A DNA stretch of 62,833 nucleotides, the filler included, from Folioceros fuciformis (Eukaryota): assembly GCA_049999805.1 (NCBI GenBank). It is 5 parts of 4 records of this genome, joined end to end, with 100 filler letters (N's around TTAATTAATTAA, not from the genome) between each part and the next. Parts side by side here need not be neighbours in the genome. Positions count along the whole stretch, not along the records: positions 21,334 to 39,403 come from JBNGIO010005752.1; 4 more parts are not named here. One strand, written 5' to 3'. The position numbers and the translations under genes are program-made. The notes beneath the pieces are model-generated. The model was not told the origin of the DNA. It made no database searches and saw only the letters and a program-made list of their open reading frames with translations. Positions 21,037 through 39,549 of the stretch are shown piece after piece (the first letter of the stretch is position 1; each line of letters opens with the position of its first letter).

Positions 21037-21530
21037 CTCAGCAAACAAGATACCTCCTGCACTCAGCAAACAAGATACCTCCTGCACTCAGCAAACAAGA
21101 TACCTCCTGCACTCAGCAAACAAGATACCTCCTGCACTCAGCAAACAAGATACCTCCTGCACTCAGCAAACAAGATACCTCCTGCACTCAGCAAACAAGA
21201 TACCTCCTGCACTCAGCAAACAAGATACCTCCTNNNNNNNNNNNNNNNNNNNNNNNNNNNNNNNNNNNNNNNNNNNNTTAATTAATTAANNNNNNNNNNN
21301 NNNNNNNNNNNNNNNNNNNNNNNNNNNNNNNNNCAGCAAACAAGATACCTCCTGCACTCAGCAAACAAGATACCTCCTGCACTCAGCAAACAAGATACCT
21401 CCTGCACTCAGCAAACAAGATACCTCCTGCACTCAGCAAACAAGATACCTCCTGCACTCAGCAAACAAGATACCTCCTGCACTCAGCAAACAAGATACCT
21501 CCTGCACTCAGCAAACAAGATACCTCCTGC
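21037..21530. repeat. 25-bp tandem repeat spanning a gap
   Basis: The perfect unit CAGCAAACAAGATACCTCCTGCACT occurs about 8 times on each side of the gap. Confidence 0.95.
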
Positions 21531-24500
21531 CCTAGAGGAGGATGCTCATCCCGTGCCTCCTCTAAGGGCAGGAAGAGGATGCTCATCCCGAGGATGCTCA
21601 TCCCGAGGATGCTCATCCCGTGCCTCCTTAACCTGCAACCTGCATCGAGGCCTTTTCCAAGGAATTTAACGGGACCTGCATCGAGGCCTTTTCCAAGGAA
21701 TTTAACGGGGATTTTTCAAGGAATTTAACGGGGATTTTCCAAGGAATTTAACGGGGAGTTACTGCCTTCATCCCCGGAGAAGAAGGCTTGTACTTCATGC
21801 CAGACAATATCGGTATCGGTATCCTCATCGTCCTCAGCACAAGGAGAGGAGAACAAGTCCTCCTCGGTATCCTCATCGTCCTCAGCACAAGGAGAGGAGA
21901 ACAAGTCCTCCTCGGAAACATACACCGCGTTATCTCTTTAGCCCGTTTTGTGGGGCTGGCACAATCCACCAAGGCTTTTCTGAGACACGCCGAACGTGTT
22001 CCCTCCATTCCAGACCCCGTTTCCACTCCATATCTGTGCCGTTTCCACTCCATATCTGTGTTGACCGCACACTGCCATAGGGACCTTCCCACGGAACCTA
22101 TTTCCACCCTTGGGCACTTCCCATGCGTTGACCGACTTTATTCAGCGCCTTCCTTCCTTTAGCCAAGGCAATCTGATCCTGGCGTTTAAGTCCTGCTGCC
22201 AGATCTTTCGAAACACGAGTCCTCTTCCCAGATCTTTCGAAACACGAGTCCTCTTCCCAACCGCCACCTCCATGCTCCTCTGTTTGTCTGTGGTCAAGTC
22301 AGATGTAGCCACTGTGTTCCAGGCAATGGACTTTCCAGCCAATATTACGCCTGACTCCACTGTTTCAGTAGGGCCGAGGCCCCCTCCAAGCCCGGGGGAC
22401 TGATGGCCTGGGGCAGACAGGTTGTGAAGTGCTGGGTCTCCCCGCGGAGACACAAGAGACTGAGTCCCATGAATCACTTTGGAAGGCTCCTTTCCCTCTA
22501 CTTCACCGACTGCTTGAGAGGGAAGGGCAAATCTTGACCCTTGATTCGAGCCCGCAGTAGCCATCCCATCACAGAACATCTGAGGACGTGGAACCGGCAG
22601 TTCAACAAGACCCATGCTGGCTCCTGGATTAGTCCCCGAGAGCGCGTTGAGTGTTCCCTCCAACTTCGAAGCCAGGGGCGTCCTTGTCAACTCAACGACC
22701 CGAAGAACATCAAACTGCCCGCTCTCCTCCACAGCAGCCGCCAGTTGCTCATAAGCAAGGTCTTCCATTGGACGACCCACCTTGGCTGCCTCAAGCCCGA
22801 AATCAGGAGCAGTTTTCTTGCCAGCGGCAGGGAGGTAAGCCAATGATCTCGCCTTCCCACCCTGTGAGTCCCCAGCTTGGCGGACTCCACCGTTGGAAAC
22901 TACCTTCTCGCCCGTTTCCCCTTGATCTGCCCATCCCCACTCAGCCGCGTATTTCGCCCACCTTTTGTCATCCTCCTTAGCGTCAGCGTCTGCCTTAGGG
23001 CTTGCTAGACGTCTCTCGCGATGCATGTCAGAAGGCAGCCTGTAGACCTCCTCCCCAGCCCGAAACTCGTCCAAGGGTGTGAAAGACCCGATTGCACTCT
23101 CGCCTTTAGAGGATCCAGAGCCTCCTCCTGGCCTCGGGGACTGTCGGCACGCTGGATCTCCAGCCCAATGGCGTCGTTCTCCATAAACACCTCGTCCTTC
23201 CTCACCTTAGGACGAGCATGCAACACTTCCCCCCACCTCGAATCCCCCGCGATTGGAATGCTCCGACATTCTCAAATACGGGGATTGTTGTTGTCAGTTG
23301 TCCCTGGAGTAAAAGACTCCTGTTGCACCCCTGGCACGTTCCCCAAGCTACCCCGTTCTTCCTCCGTGTTAGGATCCCTCTCAAGCGGCGCCAACGCCAT
23401 TACTTCCTCCTCCCCACCGAGTTGCCAGGATGGGCAACGGGAACCCATCACCAGGGGGCCAGTAAGCTAAGACTTCCCATCCTGAGCCGAGACGTTCTCC
23501 TGGGAGAGAAGTCCCGGCCTGTTCCTCGCATCCGGAGACGCCCTTTTGCCCGTGGTTTGAGCGTTCCACCTCTTTGCAGTTAGATCATCCCGAAAGCCTT
23601 CAGTTTGCCTGCCCCATCACCTCGGGACCTGCCATGAGCACATCTGCTGAATCCTCCTCCTGACCGATCACAACAACTTTCCCAGGAGCTGACACAGAAG
23701 GTGTCTTATGGCAGGAAGCGGGCACCCAAGTTTCCAAGTTGGCTTTGCTCTCTTGGACAGACACTGCCTGGTCACTTCCATCCCTGAGAACCGGCTGCGC
23801 GCCCACCTCCCCCAAGTCCAGTTGACGCCATCCTCCCACACCACATGGCCGCCTCAACAGATCCTCTCTACCTTCAACAGCCACCACAAGAGCCTCGTGT
23901 TCACGCAACATGTGGGTGCTGCCAGCCATCGGGGGCACCACCGACACTGCTTCGTCCGGGCAGGGTGGGAATCCAAACCTCGCTACCACGAGATCAGAAT
24001 GGTGAGTCGTCACGACCTGGGATAAGAAATCTTCTTGAGACCAGAAACCCGACTTGGATTGCACACCCGGTGACGCCCGACTACCTCTTGCCTGAGCGGT
24101 CCATCCCTTGGCTGTTGAATCACCCCAGCCACCTACAGACTTCCTGCCCTTCTCCTCATGACCCGCCTTTAGCTCATCTGCCGAATTCTCCTCCAGACGA
24201 TCCACGACCGTTCCCCCATGAGCTGACCCAGAAGGTGCCTTATGGTAGGGAGCGAGCACCAAGACGGCTGCTCCCGCTTCGCCATCTTGGACAAACTCCG
24301 CCTGAGGACTTCCGCCACTGAGAGCCGGTTCCACACCCACCTCTCCCCGGGCTGACTGAATACAGCCATCCATACCACTCGATCGCCTCGCAAGGACAGC
24401 TCTATCTTCGACAGCCACCATGTGTAGCTAAGCAGCACCAGGAGTCTTGTCCCTCAACTCCCCAACCCCCTCGTGGGCCTGCCCAACCGGAGACTGAAGG

Positions 24501-25929
24501 GCCCTCCTTGAGGATTCCAAGTCCTTGAGTCCTGCACCTAGGCACTGGGGTTGTGCAAGGAGAGACTTCAGGAGCTGACTGTTGCCTGAAATTGTCCTCG
24601 GCGATGCAGAGGGGATGCTCTGGAGCAATCCTGTAAGCACGCAGCCTGGATCGCAAGGAGCCAGCTCACTAAGCGGCCCATCATGCATGTTGCCTGCGAG
24701 TCTTTGCTGAGTAACGTTGTCGCACTGCCTGGGTCTGGCACCTGTCCCCAACTAGTGATCGTGAACAGCCTCTACTCTGGACCACGGGGGAACTTCCACC
24801 TGCCCTTGCTGATCCAAGTTTTCGTGAGGACCCGTGACCCACCTGGGCTGATCCAAGCTTCCTGTGCCTGTGCTTGTCTCCGACGATGCTGAGGGGAGGT
24901 TCTGGATCAATCCTGTAAGCCCGTGACCTGGATCACGAGGAATCAACTCGCCTACCGCCCAACACTTGTGTTACCTACATGTCTCTGCTGAGCGGTTGAG
25001 TCACACTGCCCCGATCTTGCCCCTATCACCAACCTGTGGTCTTGGGTAGCATCGTCTCTTAACTTCGAGGGAGCTTCCACCTGCTCTTGCAACTCCAGGC
25101 TATCTTGTGGACCCGAGACACTCTTGGACTCGCCAAACACCCTGAGCTGCACGACACTTCCACTTCCTGAAAGGGTTCTCCCCCATCAGGCCTATGGGGT
25201 CCTTTCTGGTCTAAGGCCGAGGATTGAAGCCGATTCAAGAGCTGTCCTTCCCCTTCCGCCGTACCACCTCGTTACATGTCACACCCATCGATGCCTCCAT
25301 ACTCCAGAATAAACCGGTTGTTTCCTCCTTCAGGAGTTTCTTTCCCTGAAGAAGGATGTGTGACGCCGCTAGGTGATTTAGCTCTCAACACACCAGTCAC
25401 CCCACCCAGGATGTGATGAGATAAGAACTGCCCAGGGGGGAGGACAACCGGTTTAGGGCCAGGCTCCCACTGCTCCTCTTGAGAAGAGGCACACCCCAGT
25501 TCCTCTTGCTCATCTCCCTGTTGAGAAGCAACCCGCTCCTTGCCTTCCTCGTTAAGAGGAGTATGCCAACTGTTTACCCCAACACTAGCCTTGGAGCTCG
25601 TCCCACCTTGATCTGAAAGCTCCCCTGGCTGTCCTGACTAATCACTCTGGTCACGTCCTTGCAGCAGGAAGAGTCACCAGTAACAAGGTCCTTGCAGGCG
25701 AAGGAAGTTCTGTCTAGCACCTTACGCAACCAAAGTTCACCTAATAGCTTGCCCGCCCATTCCTTTTGTATTGCACCCTCTGAGTGGATGTGAGGCACAG
25801 CCCGTCAGACTCAACACCTGAAAGGCGGTGCACCGAGAGTTGAGCAGAAAGGACATCCTTCTTTGTGGGGTCATGCTCCCGCTGTTCCCCCTAGTAAGAA
25901 CCGCGATCCCGACCCTCCTGCTTCTCGCC

Positions 25930-27598
25930 CTATTGAGCACACATCCGTTCCTTGCCCTCCTCGTCACCTGCAAGTTGAATCCCACGTAACAACTTGTCAA
26001 AAGTCCCACTTGCATCTTGGCTTTCTTTAGGAGGGTTGTTGAGCGTGTTTGTTGGTGCCAACCCTGCTCTCTTGGTACCCTCGTCTTTATCGAGATCCAC
26101 CTCCATAGGCTCAGCGCCGTCTGCTACCATGTCTTCTTCCCATCTGAGCTCCCATGTGCCTGGCAATTTTATAGAGATCGGGGCCGTGAGTAAGCCCAGA
26201 AAACCAAGATGAGCCTTGAAGACCACCCTGGATGCCAGTGTCACCCTGCCTTTGCCAAACTTCGCGTCTTTGATGTAAGACAACACCAATCTATGACACA
26301 CCATATTGTGCCTAGCCCCTTGAAGAAACATTATCCAGGTTTGTTCGTCTAACCCCAGCCCTGCCTGCAACATGACCCGCGTTCTCCGCTTAACGGTATC
26401 CCAGAAGGCAGGAAGTTGATGCCCCATCGCGGCCCCGAGCTGGAGGGAGCGCATAGGCAGGGTTCTGAGATCTCCCACCTTCGGCAGCCAATAGTAGAAA
26501 TCTTTACCCACCTTCTTCCTCATAAGAACACAGATTTTGATGTGCGTGCTGGTTGCATCTGCACTTCCCGAAAAAAAATCTTTCTGGAGTCGGCTTGCCC
26601 ACTGCTGCGTTCCGGAGTTGGGCCTCCAAGCTTTCTTGAGCACTCCTTGAAAGCCCGGCAGTGGGCCTGGATGAGCCTTCTCCGATTTGTCCTCTCCATT
26701 GCTAACTCTAGCTCGGAGGGGGCAAGAATGCTTAAGGTGACTTTTCAAGCCGCAAACACCGTACCTGACGAGTAGATCCGGGTAGTCGAATAGCTGCGTA
26801 AAACATCTATCTGGGTCCTCCGGATCGCGAACGATGACTCCTTCAGGCAAGTCCAGGAGGCTATCCACCCTAACACCAAACTGAGGGGGCCTGTCACTGT
26901 CAAAAAAATGCAAATCCACCTTGGGCACCTCCACCACTCGGCCTATAGTCCTCAAGATCTTGCGTATCATCGGAATGAGTTGCATAGGTAGGGCAGGAAG
27001 CCCCACCCAGAGAAACTGCCGCTTGATTTTCGACTGCATAATTGTGTTCCCTGGGGACTAGGCCTCCACCAGCACCAGGATGGAGCCTCGAAACGGCAGC
27101 GTTGTGTGTAAGATTGCCTACGCTCCCACTACCTCATCACACTTAATCTGAAAGGAGTCATCGGCCTTCAGGAACACATGCTGGAGGGCACCTCGATACT
27201 TGAGTCGCCCAAGTCTCCAACTCCTCCACGAAGAGGGGGCCACCAGACTGCAACCGCCCCACAACAGAGCTGGCAGCCAGTTTGTCTTCCTCCTGTTGAA
27301 AGTACCTCGCCTCAGTGAGAACATCAGCCAGAGGGCCTAGTTGGAGGCTTGGGCCCTCTTTTGCCGAAAGTGAGGCAACTGTTGGAGAAGCGTCCACCTG
27401 TGCCTGCTTGTGAGTATAATCCGCCTCAGTCGTCCATACCTGAGCATCTGTCTCAACTTCAGCTTTTGTCCGGCTAGCGTCAGATGGATTAGGATCTTTC
27501 CCCACCGCGCTTAGCCTCCTCGTATTCTGTTTACCAGAACACATGCCGACCATGGCCGCCCATGTGCCACCTGTTGAGCCCCCCCGTGGGAGGCTCAT
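25930..27598 (-). pseudogene. LINE ORF1-like (DUF4283-type region plus degenerate zinc knuckle)
   Basis: VVGRLQSGGP..ELETW, QFLWVGLPALPMQL..ILRTIGRVV and FDYPDLLVRYGVCGLKSHLKHSCP (decayed CX2CX4HX4C). The frame is broken near 27040-27160. Confidence 0.7.
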
Positions 27599-28345
27599 CG
27601 CCTCTATTGGGGCCTCAAGCTAGGCCCTTGGCAGCACCACCTTCATTGCCGTCCGCACGGACGGAGGACCTCCTAGTGCACCGTAAGCTTCGTATTTGCT
27701 GGCAACATTTCTCTACTAGATCAAGGAGACTGGACATGCTTTCAGGATCATTGCTGTGTAAACGGCATTACAGGCAACTGCATTGCAACTTTGTAGGATT
27801 GGCAATGGTGGCACAAGGAAGCAAAATAAGACCATCCAGGCTGCTGAACAACCCGAAAGCCACTCACTAGTAGGCCTGAATCCTTAGACATCACAAAAAT
27901 CCTGAGGGCTTGTTCTATGCATCAAGTGAGTTTTATGAAGCACCTGAAGCAGAAAGTTTGTATTGGTAGTTTCGCAAGAGAAACCAGATGAGGTTGGTTC
28001 CTCAGGAAAGGCAGAATCCAGGTTTTCAAGTGGTCGCGCACTCGATTGAATGGGGTGCATGGTAGCTGTATAAATGAACCCAATTGCTGTTGTAAGTGTG
28101 TCGACGTGAACGTTGTGGACTAGACCCTTAACCCAAAATCGTAAACCACCCCTAACGATTCACACCCCGGCGGTGTGAATGGGTGGATCTCTAGAACCCT
28201 ACTAAATCCTAAACCCTACGAACCCCGCGATGTTTCCTATGTGTGTAATGTAACTTAAAAAACATTGTGTGGCATTGTGATTTTTTATGATGAGGGTGCA
28301 TATCCCTAAAAAAACATAGGGATGTTCGGTATCGATCTGCAAGTG

Positions 28346-29305
28346 TGGAATACCGATATGGACAGGGTTCTTTCACAGAAATTTTAGGGCGGCGGTATAT
28401 TGTGCAAATAGTTTGGACATAACATTTGTGCCCGCTTCGGTGTCCCGATCGGGACACCTACTTTGTTTTATCCCTCACATCCCAATCTGTCTCCTCCACT
28501 CACACTCATTCCTTTTTTTAGTTAGTTAGGGTTAGGGCCGCATCCACGGTTCAAATCCTTCATTCGGATGTTCATCGCCTCCATGCACACCCCTAAACCC
28601 ACCTCTCCCTTCCCATTCAGAGTGTATCCCCACATCATGATGAGGCGCCCTCTGGAACACCTGGGAGTTCCAAAATCGGGAGCACCTGGGAGTTCCAAAA
28701 TCGGGAGCGGGAGCTCCCAATTGCGGATCAGAGCCGGGAGCTCTCAATTGCGGATCAGAGCCGGGAGCTCTCAATTGCGGATAAGAGCCGGGAGCTCTCA
28801 ATTGCGGACTAGAGTGGGAGCTCTCAATTGCGGACTAGAGTGGGAGCTCCCGATTGTCTCGAAATGATGTGCCACTTGGAACAACCGTAAACGAATCTTA
28901 ACACACTCTGTCCAATTGGGACGATTCTTTAAAGACACTATGTATGAAGCGAAATGAAGAAAAATGCTATGTTGGTCCACGAGGTTAGAGGTATTTAAAA
29001 AAAATTGCTATATGGTGTATACGTAAGGTTGGATGACGTGGCAAGGTAGAGTAGAGGAACATTGCTTACATGCCATGGAATATTTGCATATAAATATGTA
29101 TTCTAAAAAAAACATGAGTCTTAGTCCTACCCGCATCGGTATTCCATATACATGCCCGTTTCAGTGATGAGAAAAAAAAGTCCCTCTACGGTGTGGAGGT
29201 ACGTCCTGTGACGTGGCTATATAGAGTACGGGATCTGTGTAGGTTCTACCGTATATGAAATACGTATAGCAGAAAAAAGCTTGACCTGTCCGAATCGGTA
29301 TTCCA
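28346..29305. mobile_element. Putative non-autonomous DNA transposon with subterminal inverted repeats; true ends not identified
   Basis: TGGAATACCGATATGGACAGG (28346-28366) is the near-perfect reverse complement of CCTGTCCGAATCGGTATTCCA (29285-29305), with a variant at 29126-29146. The motifs GGTGTCCCGAT and CTCCATGCACACCCCTAA are shared with ~17590-17815. Confidence 0.45.
28650..28855. repeat. ~24-27-bp minisatellite
   Basis: GGGAGCTCTCAATTGCGGATCAGAGCC units and shorter variants in tandem. Confidence 0.85.
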
Positions 29306-29863
29306 TAGAAATGTAACAAGGTACCATGCGTTTTTTTTGGAGGTACGTTCCTTTCCCACAAAGAACGATGGGTACAAACAGAAGCCCTTCGTGACAAGGA
29401 GACTGTGCGGTCCTTTCTCAAGGGGCCGGCCCCCTGCCCCTGTGATCGATCAACCAGGCACTGTTATCAGGCTTGCATCTCATTCCTGGATGCCCGAAAT
29501 AGATTCAGGCTGAAATTTGGGGTTGATCTTCACCGTCCACCGCAACAATGAGAAACAGCAAAGCACATCAAAACCTGCACAACAACAATTTGTGATGACA
29601 GGTGGGCCGTCTTCATTTGCTCAGCTTGTCAAGGTCATGCTTGAGGAGGAGCCACGTGTGACCACAGTACATGAACAGCATTGCAAGGAGGGGCAGAGCA
29701 GGGAACAGAGGAACAGAGACGTGGTGTGTAGCAGGATGGTATTCCGATTTCCTGTCTCGGTTCGCGTGTGGACTGATCTGGGAGGAAGCTGATTGGATTG
29801 TGACAGCCCGAATTCCATCCGCAGAGGCGAGAAGGAGCGAGGGAGCAGCACTAGGGCGGGGGC

Positions 29864-30656
29864 ATGTCTGGAGCAAGCACCTCCGGGATCGATGAGGAGC
29901 AGCCGCTGGAGTACGCGGCTCTCAAGTCCGCGCCCGCTGTTGGCCCCCGCAAGGTGACTGCGGGGAGAGCGTGCCGCGCCTTCACATCTGCTGTGTTGCT
30001 CGTGGTTATTGCATTGCTTCTGGGAGGTATCGTGTTCCTGCTCTGGCCTACGTCCCCGGATGTGGAGGTGACTAGCATCAAACTGGACGGCATCGACATC
30101 AAGAAGGATAACGATAGCTCGTCCATCATCCCGTCCTTCTCCCTGAACGTGTCCCTCAAGCTACTACTTCAGATCACCAACGCTAACCTCTTCGGCCTCC
30201 GGTACAACCACATCTTGGTGCACATCTTGTACAGAGGGGATGAGGTCGGGCAGGTGGAGTCCGCCGGAGGCTCCGTGCCTGGGAAGACTGTGAGCAACGT
30301 AACTGCCACGCTGGATCTCCAGGGCAAGGAGATTTTGGATAACGTTGGAGACCTCTGGGATGACGTCTCCAACAACTCTGTCCCCTTCCGAACCATCACA
30401 GAGTTCTCCGGCACTGTGGATCTCCTTTTATTTCACCCTACCGTGCGGGTATAAATCCTCTTTTGGCAAAGGCCCAAGGGACGTCGTCCCTTGGTCTTTT
30501 GCGTTGCTTGTCAGAAGTTGTTCAAACAACATTCTTTGACCAGAAATGCTGACTGTTCTCAATAATCGTCTGCTGCAGGTGAACTCAACTTGTGACCTGG
30601 TTGTTGATCCTGAAGAGAAGGTCATCCTCAGCCAGGAGTGTGACCTTGATTTCTGA
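29864..30656 (+). CDS. LEA_2 / NDR1-HIN1-like single-pass membrane protein, 2 exons
   Basis: Exon 1 is 29864-30448, the GT-AG intron 30449-30578, and exon 2 30579-30656 (VNSTCDLVVDPEEKVILSQECDLDF*). There is a TM segment AVLLVVIALLLGGIVFLLWP followed by P.VEV, ITNANLFGLRY and YRGDEVG. Confidence 0.9.
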
Positions 30657-31294
30657 GCATCCCCTGTACCTTTCTTCATGTATGAGACATGGCTAGAATT
30701 TCCTAGCCTTCCTCCCAATAGACGGAGCCCAACCAGCTCTTTACCATCTTTTCACCCTCTTGTAATCCGACTTTGTGCAATATACAGGTTATGCAGTACT
30801 TGTATTGGATGCCAAAGCCCCAAAAATCAAACTTGTGATGTCGGTCCGTCACAGGGAGGTTTCTAAAACCTAGATGCTGCCTTTTGCTCGGGTTCGTCAG
30901 GCATCAGGGCGTCCTTGCCTTGGACGGAAGCTCGTTTGTGAGATGGAAGAAAGATCAATTCTGAGATTGAAGCAAGATCAATCGTGAGATTGACGTCAGA
31001 TCATGTGTTAGCTTGAATTCAGGCATTGGTAGCTGAACTCACGTGCTCTAAGACGGAGTTCGCCTCATCGATGCAGTCCAACTCATTTGCGCCCAACTAT
31101 CGGAAGACTCATGTGGAGGACCTTGTATGGTTGAAAACACGAATGCACTTCGAAAGCCCCTCGCATTGTGGATGAACATTTCTAGGTGAAACAAGGTCAT
31201 CCTTCAAGCCCGGTTGGGTTTGACATGTCAGGAAGCCGCTTGTCAGGACACTCTGCTTCGGCTGTCAGCGAGGAACGGGATTTTGTTGGATCGA

Positions 31295-33850
31295 ATGGCG
31301 TCGCAGATGAATTTCTTCGTGGGGGCCTCAGACAAACAGTCTGCCATCCATCCTATGCGCAATCTGTTGGCAGCAAAGTCGAGCTCGATACCAGTGAAAT
31401 GTGGCTGTGTGGTCCGGAACAGTCTACCATGGAACGTAGCAATTATAGCGCAGGATTTGAGGCCAGCAGCAAAAAGCATGACGCACAAGGAGCGGCAGGA
31501 GCTCTTATGGCAGCAGTTCTTCTTGAATCCCTTGGATTGGTGGGATAACAGGGTTGACAAGCAAAGCCCCCGGCATCCCGACTTCAGGCACAAGACCTCC
31601 GAGGAGCCCCTGTGGCTCAACAGCCCTCGCAAGCCGGCTTGGGTGGATTCTGAGCTGGCCAGGTGGGATGTCGAGATGAGGGGGCTTCCAGCATTGGATG
31701 CAGGAAACGTTGATGACGGAAATGCTGTGGAGAAGTCTCTAATTAAGCGTTGCGAGGAGGCGGAGCTGGGTGAAGCTGTGAAAGCGTTGAACCTTTTGGT
31801 GCAGCGGGGATATAGTATCAGCCACAGTGTCTTCTATCGAATCCTCAAGAGATGCGTGGTAGAACGGGATCTGGGTTGTGGTAGGCTAATTCATGCTCTT
31901 GTCCAAACAGGTGGGTATGGCTCTAACGCATTCGTGGCCAACCACATCATCGGCATGTACGCTTCTCATGGAGAGTTGGAGGATGCTGTGCAGGTCTTCA
32001 GGAATGTGATTGCACCCAGTGCACACATGTGGTCCTCTATTATTCTAGCGCATGTCCGACTTGGACAGCCGGCACAGGGTATACAGCTCTATCAGCAGAT
32101 GAAGGAAGCAGGCGTGAAGGCAGATAACCGTGTATTTGTTTCAGCTCTCAAGGCGTGTGCGTTGGCAGGGGACCTAGTTTCTGGCAAGCAGGTGCACGTT
32201 GATATTCCAGAGGGTGCTGAGCAGGAAGATGTTTTTTTGGCTACCAGCTTGGTGAGCATGTATGCTAAATGCGGAAGCTTAGTGGAAGCTCGCAAAGTGT
32301 TTGACGGTCTACGGAGGAAAAATGTGGTGACATGGAATGCCATGATCACTGGGTATTCTCAGCAGGGCCTGGGCCGAGAAGCCTTAGCTCTGTATGAAAT
32401 CATGCAGCATGAGGGCATGACTCCAGCTGATCATGTCACGTTTGTGTGCCTTCTTCAAGCATGTGCCAGTGCCGGGGCATTGCAGCTGGGTAAGCAGGTT
32501 CATTTGCAGATTCGTGCCAGAGGTCTCGAAGGTGACGGGCGAATCGGCAACTGTTTGGTTGACATGTATGCCAAATGCGGGAGGTTAGATGATGCTCGAG
32601 TAGTATTTGACAATTTGCTGACAAAAGATGTGGTGTCGTGGAATGCGATGATAGCAGGATACGTGCAGCAGGGTCTTGGTCACTATGCTCTGACTCTCTA
32701 TGCTTCCATGCGTGAGGAGGGCATAAGTGTTGCCAGTCTCGTGACATTCTCGTGCCTTTTACAAGCATGCGCCGATGTGGGGGCGCTGCAGCAGGGGAAA
32801 CAGCTCCATTCGGAGATTCGGGAAAGGGGCCTTGAAGGTGATGTGTTCATTAGCAGCTGCCTGGTGGACATGTACTCAAAATGCGGCACTCTGGAAGATG
32901 CTCGCGAAGTATTTGACAGTTTCCCTACAAGAGATGTTGTGACCTGGACAGCCCTGCTGAACGGTTATGCAGAGCACGGCGATGGCCTCAAGGCAATCCA
33001 TTGTTTCGAAGAGATGCTTAAGCAAGGTATCAAGCCCAATGACACCACTTTCCTTTGTCTTTTGGTAGCCTGCAGTCACGCAGGCCTGGTACAAGAAGGC
33101 CAGAAGTATTTCAACAAGATGATCGAGAACCATGGCATTAGACCCAACGCTTATCACTACAGCTGCATGGTTGATCTTCTCGCCCGGTCAGGCCAACTGG
33201 ACGAGGCAGAACACATGCTGCGGACGTCAGCGTTTGTGAATAATGTGGTGGGCTGGAAAGCTTTGCTGAGTGCCTGCAAAAGCCACGGTGATGCAGAGCG
33301 CGGAAAGCGATGCTTTGACTATCTTGTACAACTGGACCCCGAAGACGCAAGCGCATACGTGCTGCTGGGTAACATCTGTGCCAATGCCGGCAGGTGGAAT
33401 GATGTGAGCAGGATAGAGAGCCTGAGAAAGTCAGTAGGTGCTTGGAAGAAGGCTGGGAAGGCTTGCATTGAAGTTAGAAACGAGGTGCACGAGTTCACAG
33501 TAGGAGAAGACAGGTCTGACATCTCATCCAAGCTGAGGAGCGTGAACACAAGGCTGAAGGAGGAAGGGGGCCACCTGCCACGCACAGAGCTAGTGTTGAA
33601 GGCGGTCTCTGAACAGGAGAAGGAGGATGCCTTGTGTGGCCACGCAGAGAAGCTAGCCTTGGCTTATGGTCTGCTGAACACTCCAGATGGTGAAACTTTG
33701 CTAGTCACCAAGAACCTTCGCATGTGTGAGGATTGCCACAGTAGCACCAAGATCATGTCTCGGCTTGAATGTCGAGAGATCATTGTGCGAGATGCACACC
33801 GAGTGCATCGGTTCCTGGATGGGTCTTGTTCGTGTGGGGATAGGCATTGA
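31295..33850 (+). CDS. PLS-class PPR protein with E1-E2 and a variant DYW (DYW:KP / DRH-type) domain, plus an N-terminal OSB-type PDF motif; candidate organellar RNA-editing factor
   Basis: Uninterrupted ORF with the first in-frame ATG at 31295; an upstream exon via the AG at ~31185 is not excluded. Architecture: (P)LS-PLS-PLS-PLS-P2L2S2-E1-E2, then KKAGKACIEV, HAEKLA, NLRMCEDCH and CSCGDRH*. Confidence 0.93.
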   Translation: MASQMNFFVGASDKQSAIHPMRNLLAAKSSSIPVKCGCVVRNSLPWNVAIIAQDLRPAAKSMTHKERQELLWQQFFLNPLDWWDNRVDKQSPRHPDFRHKTSEEPLWLNSPRKPAWVDSELARWDVEMRGLPALDAGNVDDGNAVEKSLIKRCEEAELGEAVKALNLLVQRGYSISHSVFYRILKRCVVERDLGCGRLIHALVQTGGYGSNAFVANHIIGMYASHGELEDAVQVFRNVIAPSAHMWSSIILAHVRLGQPAQGIQLYQQMKEAGVKADNRVFVSALKACALAGDLVSGKQVHVDIPEGAEQEDVFLATSLVSMYAKCGSLVEARKVFDGLRRKNVVTWNAMITGYSQQGLGREALALYEIMQHEGMTPADHVTFVCLLQACASAGALQLGKQVHLQIRARGLEGDGRIGNCLVDMYAKCGRLDDARVVFDNLLTKDVVSWNAMIAGYVQQGLGHYALTLYASMREEGISVASLVTFSCLLQACADVGALQQGKQLHSEIRERGLEGDVFISSCLVDMYSKCGTLEDAREVFDSFPTRDVVTWTALLNGYAEHGDGLKAIHCFEEMLKQGIKPNDTTFLCLLVACSHAGLVQEGQKYFNKMIENHGIRPNAYHYSCMVDLLARSGQLDEAEHMLRTSAFVNNVVGWKALLSACKSHGDAERGKRCFDYLVQLDPEDASAYVLLGNICANAGRWNDVSRIESLRKSVGAWKKAGKACIEVRNEVHEFTVGEDRSDISSKLRSVNTRLKEEGGHLPRTELVLKAVSEQEKEDALCGHAEKLALAYGLLNTPDGETLLVTKNLRMCEDCHSSTKIMSRLECREIIVRDAHRVHRFLDGSCSCGDRH

Positions 33851-34697
33851 TCTTACGCGTAGCATGACATGCAATCAGGTCTAGTGGTACAGTACATATC
33901 TCCGGTTGCCGGGATGTGTCTCGGTACTCTGTGTCGCTGGTGACGCTGTGGACAAATCAACAAACACATGCGGACGGGCCTGGCCGGTAACTAGTTACCC
34001 TTTGGGATGTGCTGAAGACGACAAGAGAGAAGCTGTTCTTGTCCACACCTTTTCTGAGTGTTGTGTGGGCCTACGAATTTTGGAATCAGAGCTGGCAACG
34101 CGCTTAACATCTAGGTGATAACTGAGGCAGCTTAACATCTCCCTCTGGACGTCTAGTCGTTTCCCGAGAACTTCCTGTGGGGCCCATAGCCACCTGCTGC
34201 ATCGCTACAAGTTGGCTCTCACCGCCCGCTACAATTTGCGTTTGTGCCGGGCAAGGATTGCGAGGTGTCGAGGGAACATAGCGTGAAGGTGCGCCACCGC
34301 CCTGCGTGTTCTTGTTTCGTGCCGCCACCAACTCCATCCCGCGTCTATCCCATGTCTATTTCTTCTTGTTTGTGCTACAGCAATGTTGCCTTCGTAGTAG
34401 CTTGATTGCAGCTCGCGAGACTTGCGCCCAACTGTGCCCTTGGATTTTCACGCCTTTTTTTCCAGCTGCTTCAGGTTTTCGTTGTGTTGCGGTCTTGTAG
34501 CTGTGTGTGAGAATCTGCTTTGTGTATGTGCGCCGTGGGAGATGTTTGCATTTGTGATGATGTCGATACATGTCGACCCTCGAAGGTTTTAAGCCATGGT
34601 TAGCTCATGGCTGCTTTGGATCTGGCAGATTGGAGTGGATTTCTGACTTTAGCTTCCTCGAGGGAGTGTAGCAAGTGGTGTTTAAGTGGTTTTCAAA

Positions 34698-35304
34698 ATG
34701 TCGGACGGCAAGTATGCTCAAGGTTATCCTCCTCAGGCGTATCCGCCCCCGCCCTATGGCTACCCCCCTCAAGGTGAGTTTCGTCTTCTTTGCAGCGGCC
34801 GGCGAGGTCGGGGCTGTGCGGTCACTCTGTCTTGAACTCTCAAGGCCGAGGGGCTGAATTTTCTTGCGACTGCCTGTCAGGTTACCCGCAACAGCAGCCT
34901 TACTACCAGCAGGCACCTCCTGTGCAGCCTCCTCCGCAGTATTACCAGCAGCAACAACAGCAGCCACAACGCGGTGGAGGGTTTCTCGAGGGATGGTATG
35001 TAGTACTTCTTGAATCCTGTCCATTCTGCTTGTAACGTACAGTTCTTTTCCTTTGTTAGGTCTGCCGTTGTTTGCGGTAACGTCTTTTCGTTTATCGTCT
35101 TCTGTGCAGCCTGGCAGCTCTTTGTTGTTGCTGTGTGTTGGATTGCCTCTTTTGAGGGTTTAAAGGGATTTTTGCATCAGTGGAGGAGGTTCAATTCCTT
35201 GGGCCTAATGCCCCGATTGTTTTGTGTACAGTTTGGCCGCACTTTGTTGCTGCTGTTTATTGGATGAATGTTGTTGCGATCCGACTATTATTCTGGATAG
35301 TTAA
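34698..35304 (+). CDS. CYSTM (Pro/Gln/Tyr-rich, Cys-rich transmembrane tail) protein with two candidate alternative terminal exons
   Basis: Exon 1 is 34698-34773 (MSDGKYAQGYPPQAYPPPPYGYPPQ) and exon 2 is 34881-34995 (..RGGGFLEG). Terminal exon A is 35110-35155 (CLAALCCCCVLDCLF*) and terminal exon B is 35232-35304 (CLAALCCCCLLDECCCDPTIILDS*). All junctions are GT-AG and phase-compatible. Confidence 0.88.
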
Positions 35305-37179
35305 ATCTGAAGGAAGAACTCAATTCGAATGAACGTGAACGATAATATATCGTCTGTACGGGGTGTGGCGTGGGGATCGTTGCTTGGGACAGAATGGGAT
35401 ACATCGCGCGTCAGTACGATGCACCAGTGCCACTTGTAAATGTCTCCTGCACAGGAGAGAATATGCCAGGTAGCGATCTGATGGATGTATAAGACTGTGA
35501 AATTGGGAATCTGCAGGAACAATGCCTCGACTATTTTTGTAAAATGTTTTAGAATATAAAGAAATGGATGCAGTTACATTTCGTATTTCTGCCACCAATA
35601 CTGCTGGATTCCGCGGCCTTGACTGCATTTGACCTTGAACTGCGGAGGCACACTTGCTGTGACAGTTTCGCCTGCAGAACTGTGAACTGCGACGCACAAA
35701 ACTTACAACGTTGGCCTGTAGAGTTGCTACAACTAGCATCTATAGCGCTGTGACAACTGCCATGCACAAATGCTTGCAACGTTGAGAAGAGTCCTAGCTA
35801 CCGTGACAGAACTCTGGAGACGTGAAAAGAAACACTAGGGAGTCATGTCCACATTCATCTGTTAACCTTTCCTTCATAGAAATCCGGTGTGACAATGTGC
35901 CCGGCTGTTCTGTGTTGCTCCAGTACGAAACAAAAATTAGAGATGAATGCTGTCAGTTGCAACCCTTTCAAAACGCTGCGTTTTGAAGCGCTTGCAACTA
36001 CAGCTGAACCAAGGAAGATACTCACTGCTTGGGGGAATCAGCAAACGTAACTGAAGCAGCTGCAAAAGAAGAAGATAAGGAAACAAATAAGGGAAACCGG
36101 TAAACTGAACACTGGCTGGCCCGCCGGAAAGAGAACAGAAAGGCACGATTGAAAAGCTTCTCCCAACAGTGTGATGAAATCATTGTTGCGAAGAGCTCCC
36201 ACAGCCCTATCAACCACACGGTGCACACGGCTACTGGACAGCTGGATTGGACGTGTGTGCACCATCTTGTTGCAGATCTGGCTGGCAGTGCCAGCTGCTC
36301 GGCTGTGTGTGCCTCCGTTACGTGCATTTTGGAAGCTGAATAATTGCGTCTGCCAAAGCTCGCAATGTTCGCTGGCGTTGGGGCCCTCTGCCTTGCAATG
36401 ACTTCCATCCCCTGTACAGAGAAACCTTGGAAAGCGCAAATCCGGAACTACAGTTCTTGCGGTCTGTTACTTCCCTTCCAGCCTCAGCATCCTCAGAAAT
36501 CCTACAGTTCTTGCGGTCTGTTACTTACCTTCCAGCCTCATAGCGAGACCGGTGAGCAGGTCTTGCAAGATGCCCCTCATACCCATGCTGCGGGATGAGC
36601 GGGATGCATCAGAGCTCACCCAAGCTGCACCAGGATGGAAGGAAAAATCGTTATGCACAGCACTTCTCCAATGCGCCCTGGCACCCTGCTAGCCAAGGGC
36701 CACCAAATTTGCTTTGAGGTGTCTTTAAATCAATCTTGTCTCTGACAAATCTCGTTTCCTCGTCAGCTTGACGGAGACACGAGACTGTCACCAAGATCCA
36801 TGAGGACGAGAACCGCTTGTCAGGTACGTACAGGTATGTCTGTTCAGGTTGCATTCCAGTTATCAAGATGTGTCCGCGGGGAGAAACAGTACGACTAGAA
36901 ATGTGACAGCTGAGGAAGATCGAGAAAGTCAGAAATACCGGGGAATGCTGCCAATCACAGCTTCGCACTGTCAAGCGGGTTTCCCGTTCAGGAAAGAAAC
37001 GATACGCGTCTCAAGCAGAGAGTGAACTGGTGCGTGGATTCACTAGCCTAAAAATGGACTCCCGTGATAGGCCTGGAGCATCGTGGTGCACAGTACAGTA
37101 CATGTACTCGTCGTTTCAGAGGGACTGCTGGTTTTTACACTGCCGCTCGATGCGTAACGGTTCTTGTAACGGACACCTG

Positions 37180-39201
37180 TTAGACATCCACAATCGCGAA
37201 GGCGCGCGAAACGGAAGTACAGATCGTGCGTGCGAGGGAAGAATGTGGTGAGGAATGGAATGCGATTGTGAGCCCAGGAATGGCTGGGAGGACAGGTCCT
37301 CGGGCGGCCCCAGGCGGGGGTGCGCCCTCGTACGAAGAATGGTCTACCCGCAGAGTCTCCCAGTCCTTGATATGGCACCTCTCCAGAGCCCGCTGCAGGC
37401 GAGGAAGACGAGTGGTGGGCCAGGCGCCGTCGGGCGTGACGACGACGGCGCCAGCGAAGGTCTGCCCGGTGCGCTGCGCGGCGCCTACGGAGTGGGAGAG
37501 CATCCACGACAGGTCGGGGGCTGCCTCCACGATGCTCCAGAACTCGCGCGTCATTACCCCGTTGTCCAGGAAGGAGAAGTGGAAGGTGCCAGGCTGCTCG
37601 GCCCGGCGCACTGTGTAGTGTCGTCTCCGCCAGGGCGACTCGCCGTGGCTCCCAGACACTCGGAACACGGGGTCGTACCAGATGCGCCCGTCCGAGGCCC
37701 GGTAGAACGTCTGCACCTGGGACCGGAACTGGCTGGCGATGGGGAACATGTTGCCGGCGATCTTCCAGCTCCAGCCCAGCTCCAGCCAACCAGGAGGGCC
37801 TCCGCGAGCGCGTGGCTCATGGGGTGGCTCCGGAACCCGGGAATGGGGTCCACGGCCAGGTGCATCGGAGCCTGCGCGTTCAGGTCCAGGCACTTGTGGC
37901 GCTCCAGGAGGCAGAGGCTGAGTGCCTCGAGGGACGCGTTCTCGTGCTGGACGATGCAGCGGTACGTGCCGAACTAGTCCGTGGGGTCGCATGCCTGCAT
38001 GGAGCGGAGAGCCCGCCGGGCCTCGGGGTCCGCCAGGCAGGCGGCCAGCTTCGGGAGGCAGTTGCTCGTTGCGCAGAGCAGGAAGCCGGGGCCGCGGGCT
38101 TGGAGTTTCTGGAGGGATGGGACCGGCGTCACGTAGCTGTCGACCAGCAGCTGGAGGGCTGTCAGGATGTTGTTGCTGCTCTTCCGGTGCCAGATCTCGG
38201 TTGCCTTCCGCATCTTACTGCGCGCCTCTTGCTTCCTGTTCCAGTGGAAGAGCTCGAGGTTGAGGGGTGCCGGGAGCGGGATGTGGGGGGGGGGGCGACC
38301 GGCACCTCGCCCAGTCGGGACGGCAGGGAGGGGTGGCAGTCGAATGCGGCCAGCGTCGGATGTGGGATGTTGCAAGAGCGAGGTGCGTTGCGGTCAATGC
38401 GTCCTCCACTTGTACGGTGACTACCATGTCGGCTTCATGTAAGCTCGCTGCCCGGGCGAGTCCCAGCAGGCTTGGAATTCCCAAGTGGCCAAAATTCATT
38501 CCCATGGTCAGAGTTTTGATTAGTTCTAGCGTCTGTCTGGCAGGAGGAAACGTGCCTGCAACTGCCTCAAGGAAGGATGAGGAGACGACAGAGTTTGAAC
38601 GTAACCAAACGAATCATTCAAGATGTGAGTACGCGAGCATAAGGAAGGAGGAGACTGGAAGAATCGACTCGATCAGGCGGAAACGGGGAAGAGTCAAGTA
38701 TATGAACTCATATCTGACAAGGTCAGACGCTTCCAACACTATCATCTCCAATCCCGTATCGGCCCGCCCTAATTTGCGAGCCCTCTGCTCCATCACATCC
38801 CTCCAGGATGCGCTTCCCCAGGGGCTCGTCTTCCTACTTCCGACCACAGCGAGCACCCTGGCCTTCGCCCCGGCCAAGAATTCTGGTTCTCCAGAGGGCT
38901 GCGGGGATGATACAGGAGCTTCCGTGGGACAATCAACTCTTTCAAGTTGTAATTCGGGAACAAGGGGCAGACTGGCGAATACGGGCTTCCTCAGCCCTCC
39001 GAATGCTCTCGACGTTGTCAAGCGCTGGACTTGATCGTCATTGCGGCGACTGCCATTCCTCGACTTGGACGACGTTCTTCGCAGGCTTCCGATCATAGCC
39101 AGCCTGGCACAGCCCTTGCGTCCCAGCCGTCGCATACAACTTCCTGCTGGATGCGTCAACATCAGGCCTGAAGCGGGGGCATTCCCCGCTAGCATCTCCA
39201 T
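37180..39201 (-). pseudogene. VDR: Violaxanthin de-epoxidase-related (VDR-like) gene, disrupted
   Basis: N-terminal RVLAVVG..SPWGSASWRDVM, central ACLADP..ACDPTD*FGTYRCI..LSLCLLERHKCL, and lipocalin-like WYDPVF..WRRRHY.VRR..PGTFHFSFLDNGV..EFW..DLSW..GAA..GQ.FAGAVVVTPDG. In-frame TAG at 37974-37976 and frameshifts near 38360, 38290-38250 and 37785. Start codon uncertain. Confidence 0.75.
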
Positions 39202-39549
39202 CTCCTCACACCAGTACTCGTGCAGCCAGATCTCGCACCTCCAACCCAGTCCTTTGGGGCTGCGATTAAGATATGAAGGAGGAGGAGCTGGGATAGCCTC
39301 ACAGAGTCGTTTCTCCTTCCCCAGCAGTTCGTCTGGAATTCCTGTCAGGGTGCCTGTACCTGAGCATCTTCTCATCCTGACCACCTCCTCCACGCAGTAG
39401 CTCNNNNNNNNNNNNNNNNNNNNNNNNNNNNNNNNNNNNNNNNNNNNTTAATTAATTAANNNNNNNNNNNNNNNNNNNNNNNNNNNNNNNNNNNNNNNNN
39501 NNNAGGTATATAACAATGTAACTTAAGAAATATTTAATAACTCTAACAG

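Follow-up and report, generated by a model that had tools for sequence, protein, structure and literature searches.

Why would a predicted organellar RNA-editing factor of a hornwort carry, ahead of its RNA-binding repeats, a motif known from proteins that bind single-stranded DNA in organelles (OSB proteins)? This question is raised by a gene at 31295..33850 on the + strand of a 62,833-nucleotide stretch of Folioceros fuciformis DNA (assembly GCA_049999805.1; hereafter the window), which joins five parts of four genome records end to end with 100 filler letters between parts; the gene lies in the part taken from JBNGIO010005752.1 (21334-39403). Editing factors of the PLS class of pentatricopeptide repeat (PPR) proteins are usually described as a presequence followed by a PPR array, E motifs and a DYW domain. 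The product of this gene has, in addition, a PDF motif of the OSB type between its putative presequence and its PPR array.

The gene is a single uninterrupted open reading frame (ORF) of 851 codons. Its ATG at 31295 is the first in-frame start after an upstream stop, the nearest in-frame stop lying ~36 codons 5' of it, and the motif follows in frame with no stop between the 60-residue presequence and the PPR array. Residues 1-60 (31295..31474; this and all following parts of the gene are on the + strand) form a putative organelle transit peptide that is Ser/Ala-rich, contains 7 K/R versus 2 D/E, and has a predicted local distance difference test score (pLDDT) below 50 at residues 1-58. The PDF domain covers residues 65-128 (31487..31678), as delimited by a hidden Markov model (HMM) envelope and AlphaFold2, and its core signature, WQQFFLNPLDWWDNRVDKQSPRHPDFRHKTSEEPLWLNSPRKPAWV, corresponds to residues 72-117 (31508..31645). 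A short flexible linker, residues 129-140 (31679..31714; pLDDT below 50 at 130-133 and 135-138), leads to a PLS-type PPR array of ~15 helix-pair motifs at residues 141-650 (31715..33244; Pfam PPR_2, E = 1.1e-66, and PPR, E = 2.6e-66, with helix pairs in the AlphaFold2 model). The E1/E2 motifs, together with the beginning of the DYW region, occupy residues 651-735 (33245..33499; E_motif PF20431 at residues 664-726, E = 5e-14; helices at 651-713 and strands at 722-735), and a DYW-type deaminase domain bearing marks of the DYW:KP 'DRH' kind fills residues 736-851 plus the stop codon (33500..33850; DYW_deaminase PF14432 at residues 759-849, E = 1.4e-34). With a tandem PPR array, E1/E2 motifs after it, and a C-terminal DYW domain containing an HxE...CxxC zinc site, this is a PLS-class PPR-E-DYW protein. 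Pfam, which has no model for the PDF motif, finds no family matching residues 1-140, and the PDF signature occurs only once in a six-frame regular-expression scan of the whole window. The in-frame, intronless fusion that a first-pass annotation had described from the nucleotide sequence is therefore borne out by the reading frame, Pfam and Foldseek; the motif span that it gave, 31508-31660, starts correctly and runs five codons beyond 31645, which is immaterial, and the folded unit is the wider 31487..31678.

The identity of the motif was examined with phmmer searches against a database of 1.84 billion cluster representatives. Residues 61-130 matched 671 proteins at E<=1e-3, of which 204 reached E<=1e-10 and 17 reached E<=1e-30, including a protein named 'protein OSB3, chloroplastic/mitochondrial-like' (P0005) at E = 1.0e-48. 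Most of the top matches contain several C-terminal PDF copies. Among five OSB-like matches that we tested, four contain the SSB OB fold (PF00436) at the Pfam curated cut-off and the fifth falls below the cut-off; in the three matches of typical OSB size, the PDF copies are preceded by the OB fold. An OB fold followed by PDF copies is the architecture of OSB proteins (PMC6963530, PMC13393729; papers given by such numbers are cited here from the accessible parts of their text).

We then aligned 646 motif instances, 564 from non-PPR proteins and 82 attached to PPR arrays, to an HMM built from the phmmer matches. The PDF domain of the window protein has an HMM E-value of 1.8e-26 over an envelope of residues 65-128. 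Thirteen positions are conserved at 90% or more in the 564 non-PPR motifs (W8, P15, W18, D20, R22, K25, P31, D32, F33, L42, W43, P50 and W52); the same positions are conserved at 94% or more in the 82 PPR-attached motifs, and all 13 are kept in the window motif. The window motif also matches the ~50-residue PDF signature W..(L/F)..NP..W.D.R..K.....PDF.HK.....LW......P.WV. The OSB family itself is defined by an SSB-like OB fold N-terminal to the PDF copies and by strong binding to single-stranded DNA; Pfam finds no PF00436 in the window protein, and its residues 1-58 are predicted to be disordered. Similarity to the PDF motifs of OSB proteins is highly significant and, with the 13 retained signature positions, confirms by sequence comparison that the window motif is a genuine OSB-type PDF.

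Contigs from two sequencing runs of the same organism (X1, RNA; X2, DNA) and from runs of two related organisms (X4 and X6) indicate that the PDF segment is present in RNA. Three X1 contigs (31038-31598, 31570-32824 and 32797-33638) tile the leader, PDF segment and PPR array colinearly with the genome and with zero mismatches, making 31038..33638 (+) the minimum stretch under such contigs. In the same run, both neighbouring genes are represented by GT..AG-spliced contigs (30447>30578, 34471>34626 and 34771>34879), and depth is zero or near zero in intergenic bins; because the neighbouring genes are spliced and the intergenic bins are empty, we read X1 as RNA. X2 lacks these spliced joints, and its contig 29471-31598 runs unspliced through the intron of the upstream gene. 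No X1 joint removes 31508-31645. X4 and X6 contain the spliced neighbour as X1 does, which suggests that they too are RNA runs, and their contigs cover 31221-31594 with 31565-31964, and 31331-31671, at ~86-92% identity. Retention of the motif in the transcript is thus supported by colinear same-organism RNA contigs in a run in which both neighbours are spliced. The first-pass annotation had named two outcomes that would speak against its proposal, removal of the segment by splicing and a peptide dissimilar to OSB motifs, and neither was seen.

Several other features of these contigs concern relatives of the gene. Non-GT..AG joints inside the gene in X4 and X6 (e.g. 31592>32250 and 31608>31935) were rejected as introns, as their sides measure 29-35 nucleotides with unknown letters between them; we read them as contigs of paralogous PPR genes, and none occurs in X1 across the motif. 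The summed X2 contig depth is 44.8 over 31208-31641 versus ~10 in the flanks, and three X2 contigs carry an alternative base at 31546, a synonymous change at the third codon position of Asp84; these two features hint at paralogues in the same organism. Further downstream, the summed depth of contigs over 32076..32943 climbs into the thousands in each of the four runs, and numerous loose ends occur at 32318-32364 and 32561-32661; this shows that there are many paralogous PLS-PPR genes with at least 85% identity at these motif-boundary sequences. In the leader, an ATG 70 nucleotides upstream of ATG 31295 opens an out-of-frame ORF of 107 codons (31225..31548, +) within the X1 contig that begins at 31038; it may represent an upstream or overlapping ORF, or else indicate that the transcript begins further downstream.

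The deaminase domain of the 851-residue protein has the active site HAEKLA, the zinc motif CEDCH and the C-terminus CSCGDRH. The sequence KKAGKACIEV apparently stands where DYW:PG domains have a Pro-Gly box; an altered PG box and a conserved Lys88 are further features ascribed to DYW:KP. Hornwort DYW:KP proteins form two variants, DRH and GRP, named for their last three residues, and have a conserved alanine where DYW:PG has HSE (PMC9478123). The last three residues of the window protein are DRH, and it has HAE in place of HSE; it therefore bears the marks of the DRH variant of DYW:KP, in keeping with the hornwort source of the window. U-to-C editing by the DYW:KP class was shown with designer proteins (PMC9478123) and was reported as detectable only after proteinase K treatment (PMC11845758). 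Judged by its sequence, the window protein is a candidate U-to-C editor of this variant. Its earlier description as a PPR-DYW editing factor holds for the PLS-class PPR-E-DYW architecture but needs amendment for the deaminase, which is not a canonical DYW:PG domain.

The fusion is not confined to the window protein. Word-index searches with the single motif found only one protein (P0002). Twelve of the best 150 phmmer matches have a PPR array downstream of an N-terminal PDF. A profile built from 13 PPR-attached motifs matched 900 proteins at E<=1e-3; PPR Pfam families are present in 32 of the best 120 of these 900, and four of the 32 also contain PF14432. Overall, 44 of 248 fetched proteins, the window protein included, combine PDF and PPR, giving at least 44 fusions. 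One PDF copy is present in 11 of them, two in 25 and three in eight. The copies lie N-terminal to the array, usually within ~25 residues of it, the exception being one extra internal copy in P0172. Across the 13 PPR-attached motifs used for the profile, which come from the hornwort-type protein, ferns, a lycophyte and a moss, 14 columns are invariant.

A DYW domain is found in six of the 44 fusions, with HAE and DRH in the window protein and HSE and DYW in the five others. In the 38 further fusions, the end is an E-type tail or is truncated. As the fusion occurs with E-only, DYW:PG and DYW:KP ends, it is not KP-specific among these proteins. Of the 43 fusions outside the window, 41 have a named source: Diphasiastrum complanatum (32), Adiantum capillus-veneris (4), Pteridium aquilinum (3, all transcriptome ORFs), Ceratopteris richardii (1) and Sphagnum compactum (1); these taxon counts are lower bounds, biased to multi-copy proteins, and are not a census. 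No seed-plant fusion is among the matches listed, despite many seed-plant OSBs in the same lists. Together, these searches establish the PDF-PPR fusion as a recurrent architecture in seedless land plants.

To ask how the PPR-attached motifs are related, we built a FastTree phylogeny of the 646 motifs. Labels (PPR-attached or other) change 12 times on this tree, compared to a mean of 78 and a minimum of 74 in 200 shuffles, a contrast that is inflated by relatedness. The window motif and P0002 group with six PPR motifs from ferns and three short fragments in a clade of 12 leaves (support 0.90), and the lycophyte and Sphagnum motifs fall in an 83-leaf clade of 68 PPR-attached and 15 other motifs. 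In an approximately unbiased (AU) test on a 103-motif subsample, a single clade of 38 PPR-attached motifs was not rejected (p = 0.612), with six fragment rows left free and the tested group named after the first tree had been viewed. Because the AU test does not reject a single clade, and although non-rejection is no proof, the motif sequences are compatible with one ancient fusion. Near the fern and hornwort PPR-type motifs in this tree are two proteins from JGI/IMG metagenome contigs (P0046 and P0249) with three divergent PDF-like repeats (PDFQHK and PDFVQE variants), in which neither an OB fold nor a PPR array was detected.

We used AlphaFold2 to model the full-length protein on an alignment of 38 fusion proteins (mean pLDDT 85.1). 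Residues 1-58 are disordered, consistent with a presequence. The PDF is predicted as a compact fold with a helix at 64-77, short strands at 82-84 and 97-99, and a helix at 116-129; pLDDT is 84-91 over residues 61-120 of the full model and 90.1 when the 64-residue PDF unit is modelled alone, so the fold is predicted with confidence. Residues 130-138 are disordered, and C-terminal to this linker the model contains ~15 PPR helix pairs, two E-type pairs and a DYW fold. The PDF is thus modelled as an independently folding unit on a linker of ~10 residues. The top Foldseek match of the full model is 9kfx_A, a synthetic PPR-DYW protein with its target RNA (E = 2.6e-40, 49% identity). A search of PDB sequences with the PDF profile gave no matches at E<=1, and a search of the ESM Atlas gave no usable match. 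The absent fold matches for the PDF model mean that no fold is assigned to it; they do not show that its fold is new.

What, then, could the PDF do on an editing factor? A PPR array lies on its RNA with the N-terminus facing 5', which would therefore place the PDF just 5' of the sequence-specific footprint. In the reading that we favor, an organelle-targeted PLS-class PPR editing factor gained one ~60-residue PDF copy between its presequence and first PPR motif, and this copy would act in cis as a sequence-unspecific clamp for single-stranded nucleic acid. Such a clamp would let the factor bind its target transcript, or neighbouring single-stranded DNA (ssDNA), more tightly or for longer, and would be an in-cis helper for editing factors in heavily editing lineages without MORF/RIP helpers. 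We favor a clamp because the ssDNA binding of AtOSBs is ascribed to their PDF domains and not to the OB fold (PMC6963530, PMC6451138), and because the PPR-attached copies keep the aromatic and basic signature, are predicted to fold independently, and adjoin the N-terminus of the array. To this reading as a whole we give a probability of roughly 0.55.

Several considerations weigh against this reading. We infer both the ligand of the PDF on PPR proteins and any effect on editing. In the work of Zaegel and colleagues from 2006, OSB1 reportedly prefers ssDNA over RNA, which, if right, would favor a DNA tether over an RNA clamp. The window motif is roughly charge-neutral overall, and the PDF model has no solved counterpart from which a ligand could be read (no Foldseek match at E<=1e-3, best VIA-align Z of 3.4). 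On the transcript side, the RNA label of X1 is an automated guess, so that the RNA call rests on the spliced neighbours and the empty intergenic bins; contigs cannot define transcript ends or the start; and the RNA-covered leader contains the out-of-frame ATG at 31225. Finally, ssDNA is the only documented ligand of PDF domains (PMC6963530, PMC6451138). This last point speaks for a protein whose PDF keeps its OSB activity and tethers the editor to nucleoids or to ssDNA (for example non-template strands, R-loops or intermediates of replication and recombination), coupling editing to transcription, the idea that the first-pass annotation put first. All signature residues are kept, as such a tether would have it, and in the predicted structure the flexible linker could let the PDF reach DNA while the array holds nascent RNA. 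However, the constant short spacing between the PDF and the first PPR motif fits contact with the same RNA strand at least as well, and no observation here is specific to DNA or nucleoid association; we consider a DNA tether unlikely, while taking it seriously.

The PDF could instead contact proteins, recruiting OSB or editosome partners or dimerizing PPR factors as a functional analogue of MORF/RIP. AtOSB2 is reported as a tetramer (PMC6963530), and MORF proteins are treated as a seed-plant feature (PMC13386178), while all 41 named fusions come from seedless plants. Yet no report that we found assigns OSB oligomerization to the PDF, and the conserved Trp, Phe, Arg and Lys signature looks typical of nucleic-acid contacts, leaving an interaction module as a doubtful proposition. 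It is also conceivable that the PDF has no role of its own, as a neutral passenger or part of the import signal that was captured with an exon or retro-copy and carried along in PPR expansion. Expansion of the PPR families in hornworts and lycophytes is attributed to duplication linked to retroposition (PMC13386178), which would spread any ancestral N-terminus, and in several homologues the PDF starts only ~15-45 residues from the annotated N-terminus. Invariance at 14 columns among 13 PPR-attached motifs, conservation of the same positions in OSBs, a confidently predicted fold and the two or three PDF copies of many proteins are hard to reconcile with a passenger, and we judge it very unlikely. 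The least credible account by far is an assembly or gene-model artefact in which an OSB fragment was misjoined to a PPR gene. The window does contain assembly gaps, though none within 21334-39403, and the junction is tiled with zero mismatches by X2 contigs (29471-31598 and 31595-32450) and X1 contigs (31038-31598 and 31570-32824); contigs from related organisms cross it as well, and fusions are independently present in at least five further named species.

A broader proposal goes beyond the clamp. PDF-PPR proteins may be an ancient, unrecognized subfamily of editing factors that arose before hornworts, mosses, lycophytes and ferns diverged, in which the PDF docks the editor on a displaced strand or R-loop for co-transcriptional editing, and which was lost in seed plants as trans-acting MORF/RIP proteins arose. 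We regard this as a long shot; if it were true, adding PDF modules could improve weak synthetic U-to-C editors.

The genes on either side of the PDF-PPR gene are on the same strand. Upstream, 29864..30454 (+) encodes a LEA_2 protein (PF03168, E = 7.7e-09), with a GT..AG intron at 30448-30577 that is removed in X1, X4 and X6. Downstream, a spliced transcript at 33697..35886 (+) has an X1 depth of ~357, compared to 10-16 for the PPR gene, and has a contig that begins at 33697, within the terminal, DYW-coding part of that gene. The introns of this transcript span 34472-34625 and 34772-34878, and alternative joints follow 34994. The spliced ORF begins MSDGKYAQGYPPQ and is Pro/Gln/Tyr-rich; its product presumably resembles small CYSTM-type proteins.

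The searches also brought up unusual PDF proteins without PPR arrays. Some of them, namely P0003 (Kingdonia uniflora, 1160 residues), P0004, P0007, P0009 and P0014, have 9-13 tandem PDF copies, and the maximum reported in the accessible text of a 2026 OSB survey, five copies in Amborella (PMC13393729), is far below this. Another protein, P0203 (eukprot record Ulvmu1, 491 residues, E = 7.9e-42), combines SSB PF00436 with a PDF under a chlorophyte-type label. Chlamydomonas is described as having no OSB, with the origin of OSBs placed after that divergence (PMC13393729); P0203 could reflect contamination or an earlier OSB origin. In P0045 (Coptis chinensis, with a kinesin motor Pfam domain) and P0034 (Striga hermonthica, named ICR2), PDF copies lie inside long seed-plant gene models with unrelated domains, each probably the result of a merger of genes in annotation.

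A PLS-class editing factor with an accessory PDF module is seemingly undescribed. Our literature search, which included the 2026 OSB family survey and a 2026 kingdom-wide survey of editing-factor domain fusions, each in its accessible parts, found no description of a PDF-PPR fusion; it did not cover supplements, Zaegel 2006, Gerke 2020 or Gutmann 2020, so an earlier mention is possible. By term look-up, the accessible text of PMC13393729, PMC9459714, PMC13386178 and PMC3858439 does not mention the fusion. The OSB survey would exclude PDF-PPR proteins because it required both an OB fold and a PDF.

The editing machinery has, in this extra conserved module before the array, an unexplained component; many lycophyte proteins carry two or three copies of it, and the fusion is found in exactly those lineages in which C-to-U and U-to-C editing are massive. 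The PDF motif gains a wider context than that of an OSB-specific ssDNA binder, which raises the question of RNA binding by the PDF. To our knowledge, programmable U-to-C editing can be reached only through DYW:KP editors, and a natural accessory domain of a DYW:KP-type protein lends itself directly to testing in the bacterial and human-cell assays already available. The fusion therefore offers a concrete handle on how editing factors act in hyper-editing plants without MORF proteins, and on better U-to-C editors.

How does this protein compare with known systems? It shares with OSB proteins the PDF module, with all 13 signature positions and E-values down to 1e-48 against an OSB3-like protein, and both are presumed to be organelle-targeted; it differs in having no OB fold and in placing its single PDF N-terminal to a PPR-E-DYW factor. 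The hornwort DRH-variant DYW:KP proteins on which the designer U-to-C editor KP1 is based (PMC9478123) have the same PLS array, E1/E2 motifs, HAE and terminal DRH. However, the accessible text of PMC9478123 and PMC11845758 mentions no N-terminal PDF for them, and the designer proteins begin directly at the PPR motifs. Maize PPR4, with its N-terminal RRM, PPR-SMR proteins and OTP51, with its LAGLIDADG domain, likewise join a PPR array to one extra nucleic-acid-related module, which in PPR4 is also N-terminal (PMC9459714). These are P-class proteins that act in splicing or stability and carry RRM, SMR or LAGLIDADG modules, whereas the window protein is a PLS-class editing factor with a PDF. A functional parallel may be the MORF/RIP proteins of seed-plant editosomes, accessories through which, as possibly through the PDF, PLS PPR factors gain affinity for RNA; a designer PLS-PPR-MORF9 complex (5iww) is among the fold matches of the window protein. 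MORF/RIP proteins are separate polypeptides of unrelated fold that bind the PPR array, whereas the PDF is fused to its editing factor in cis.

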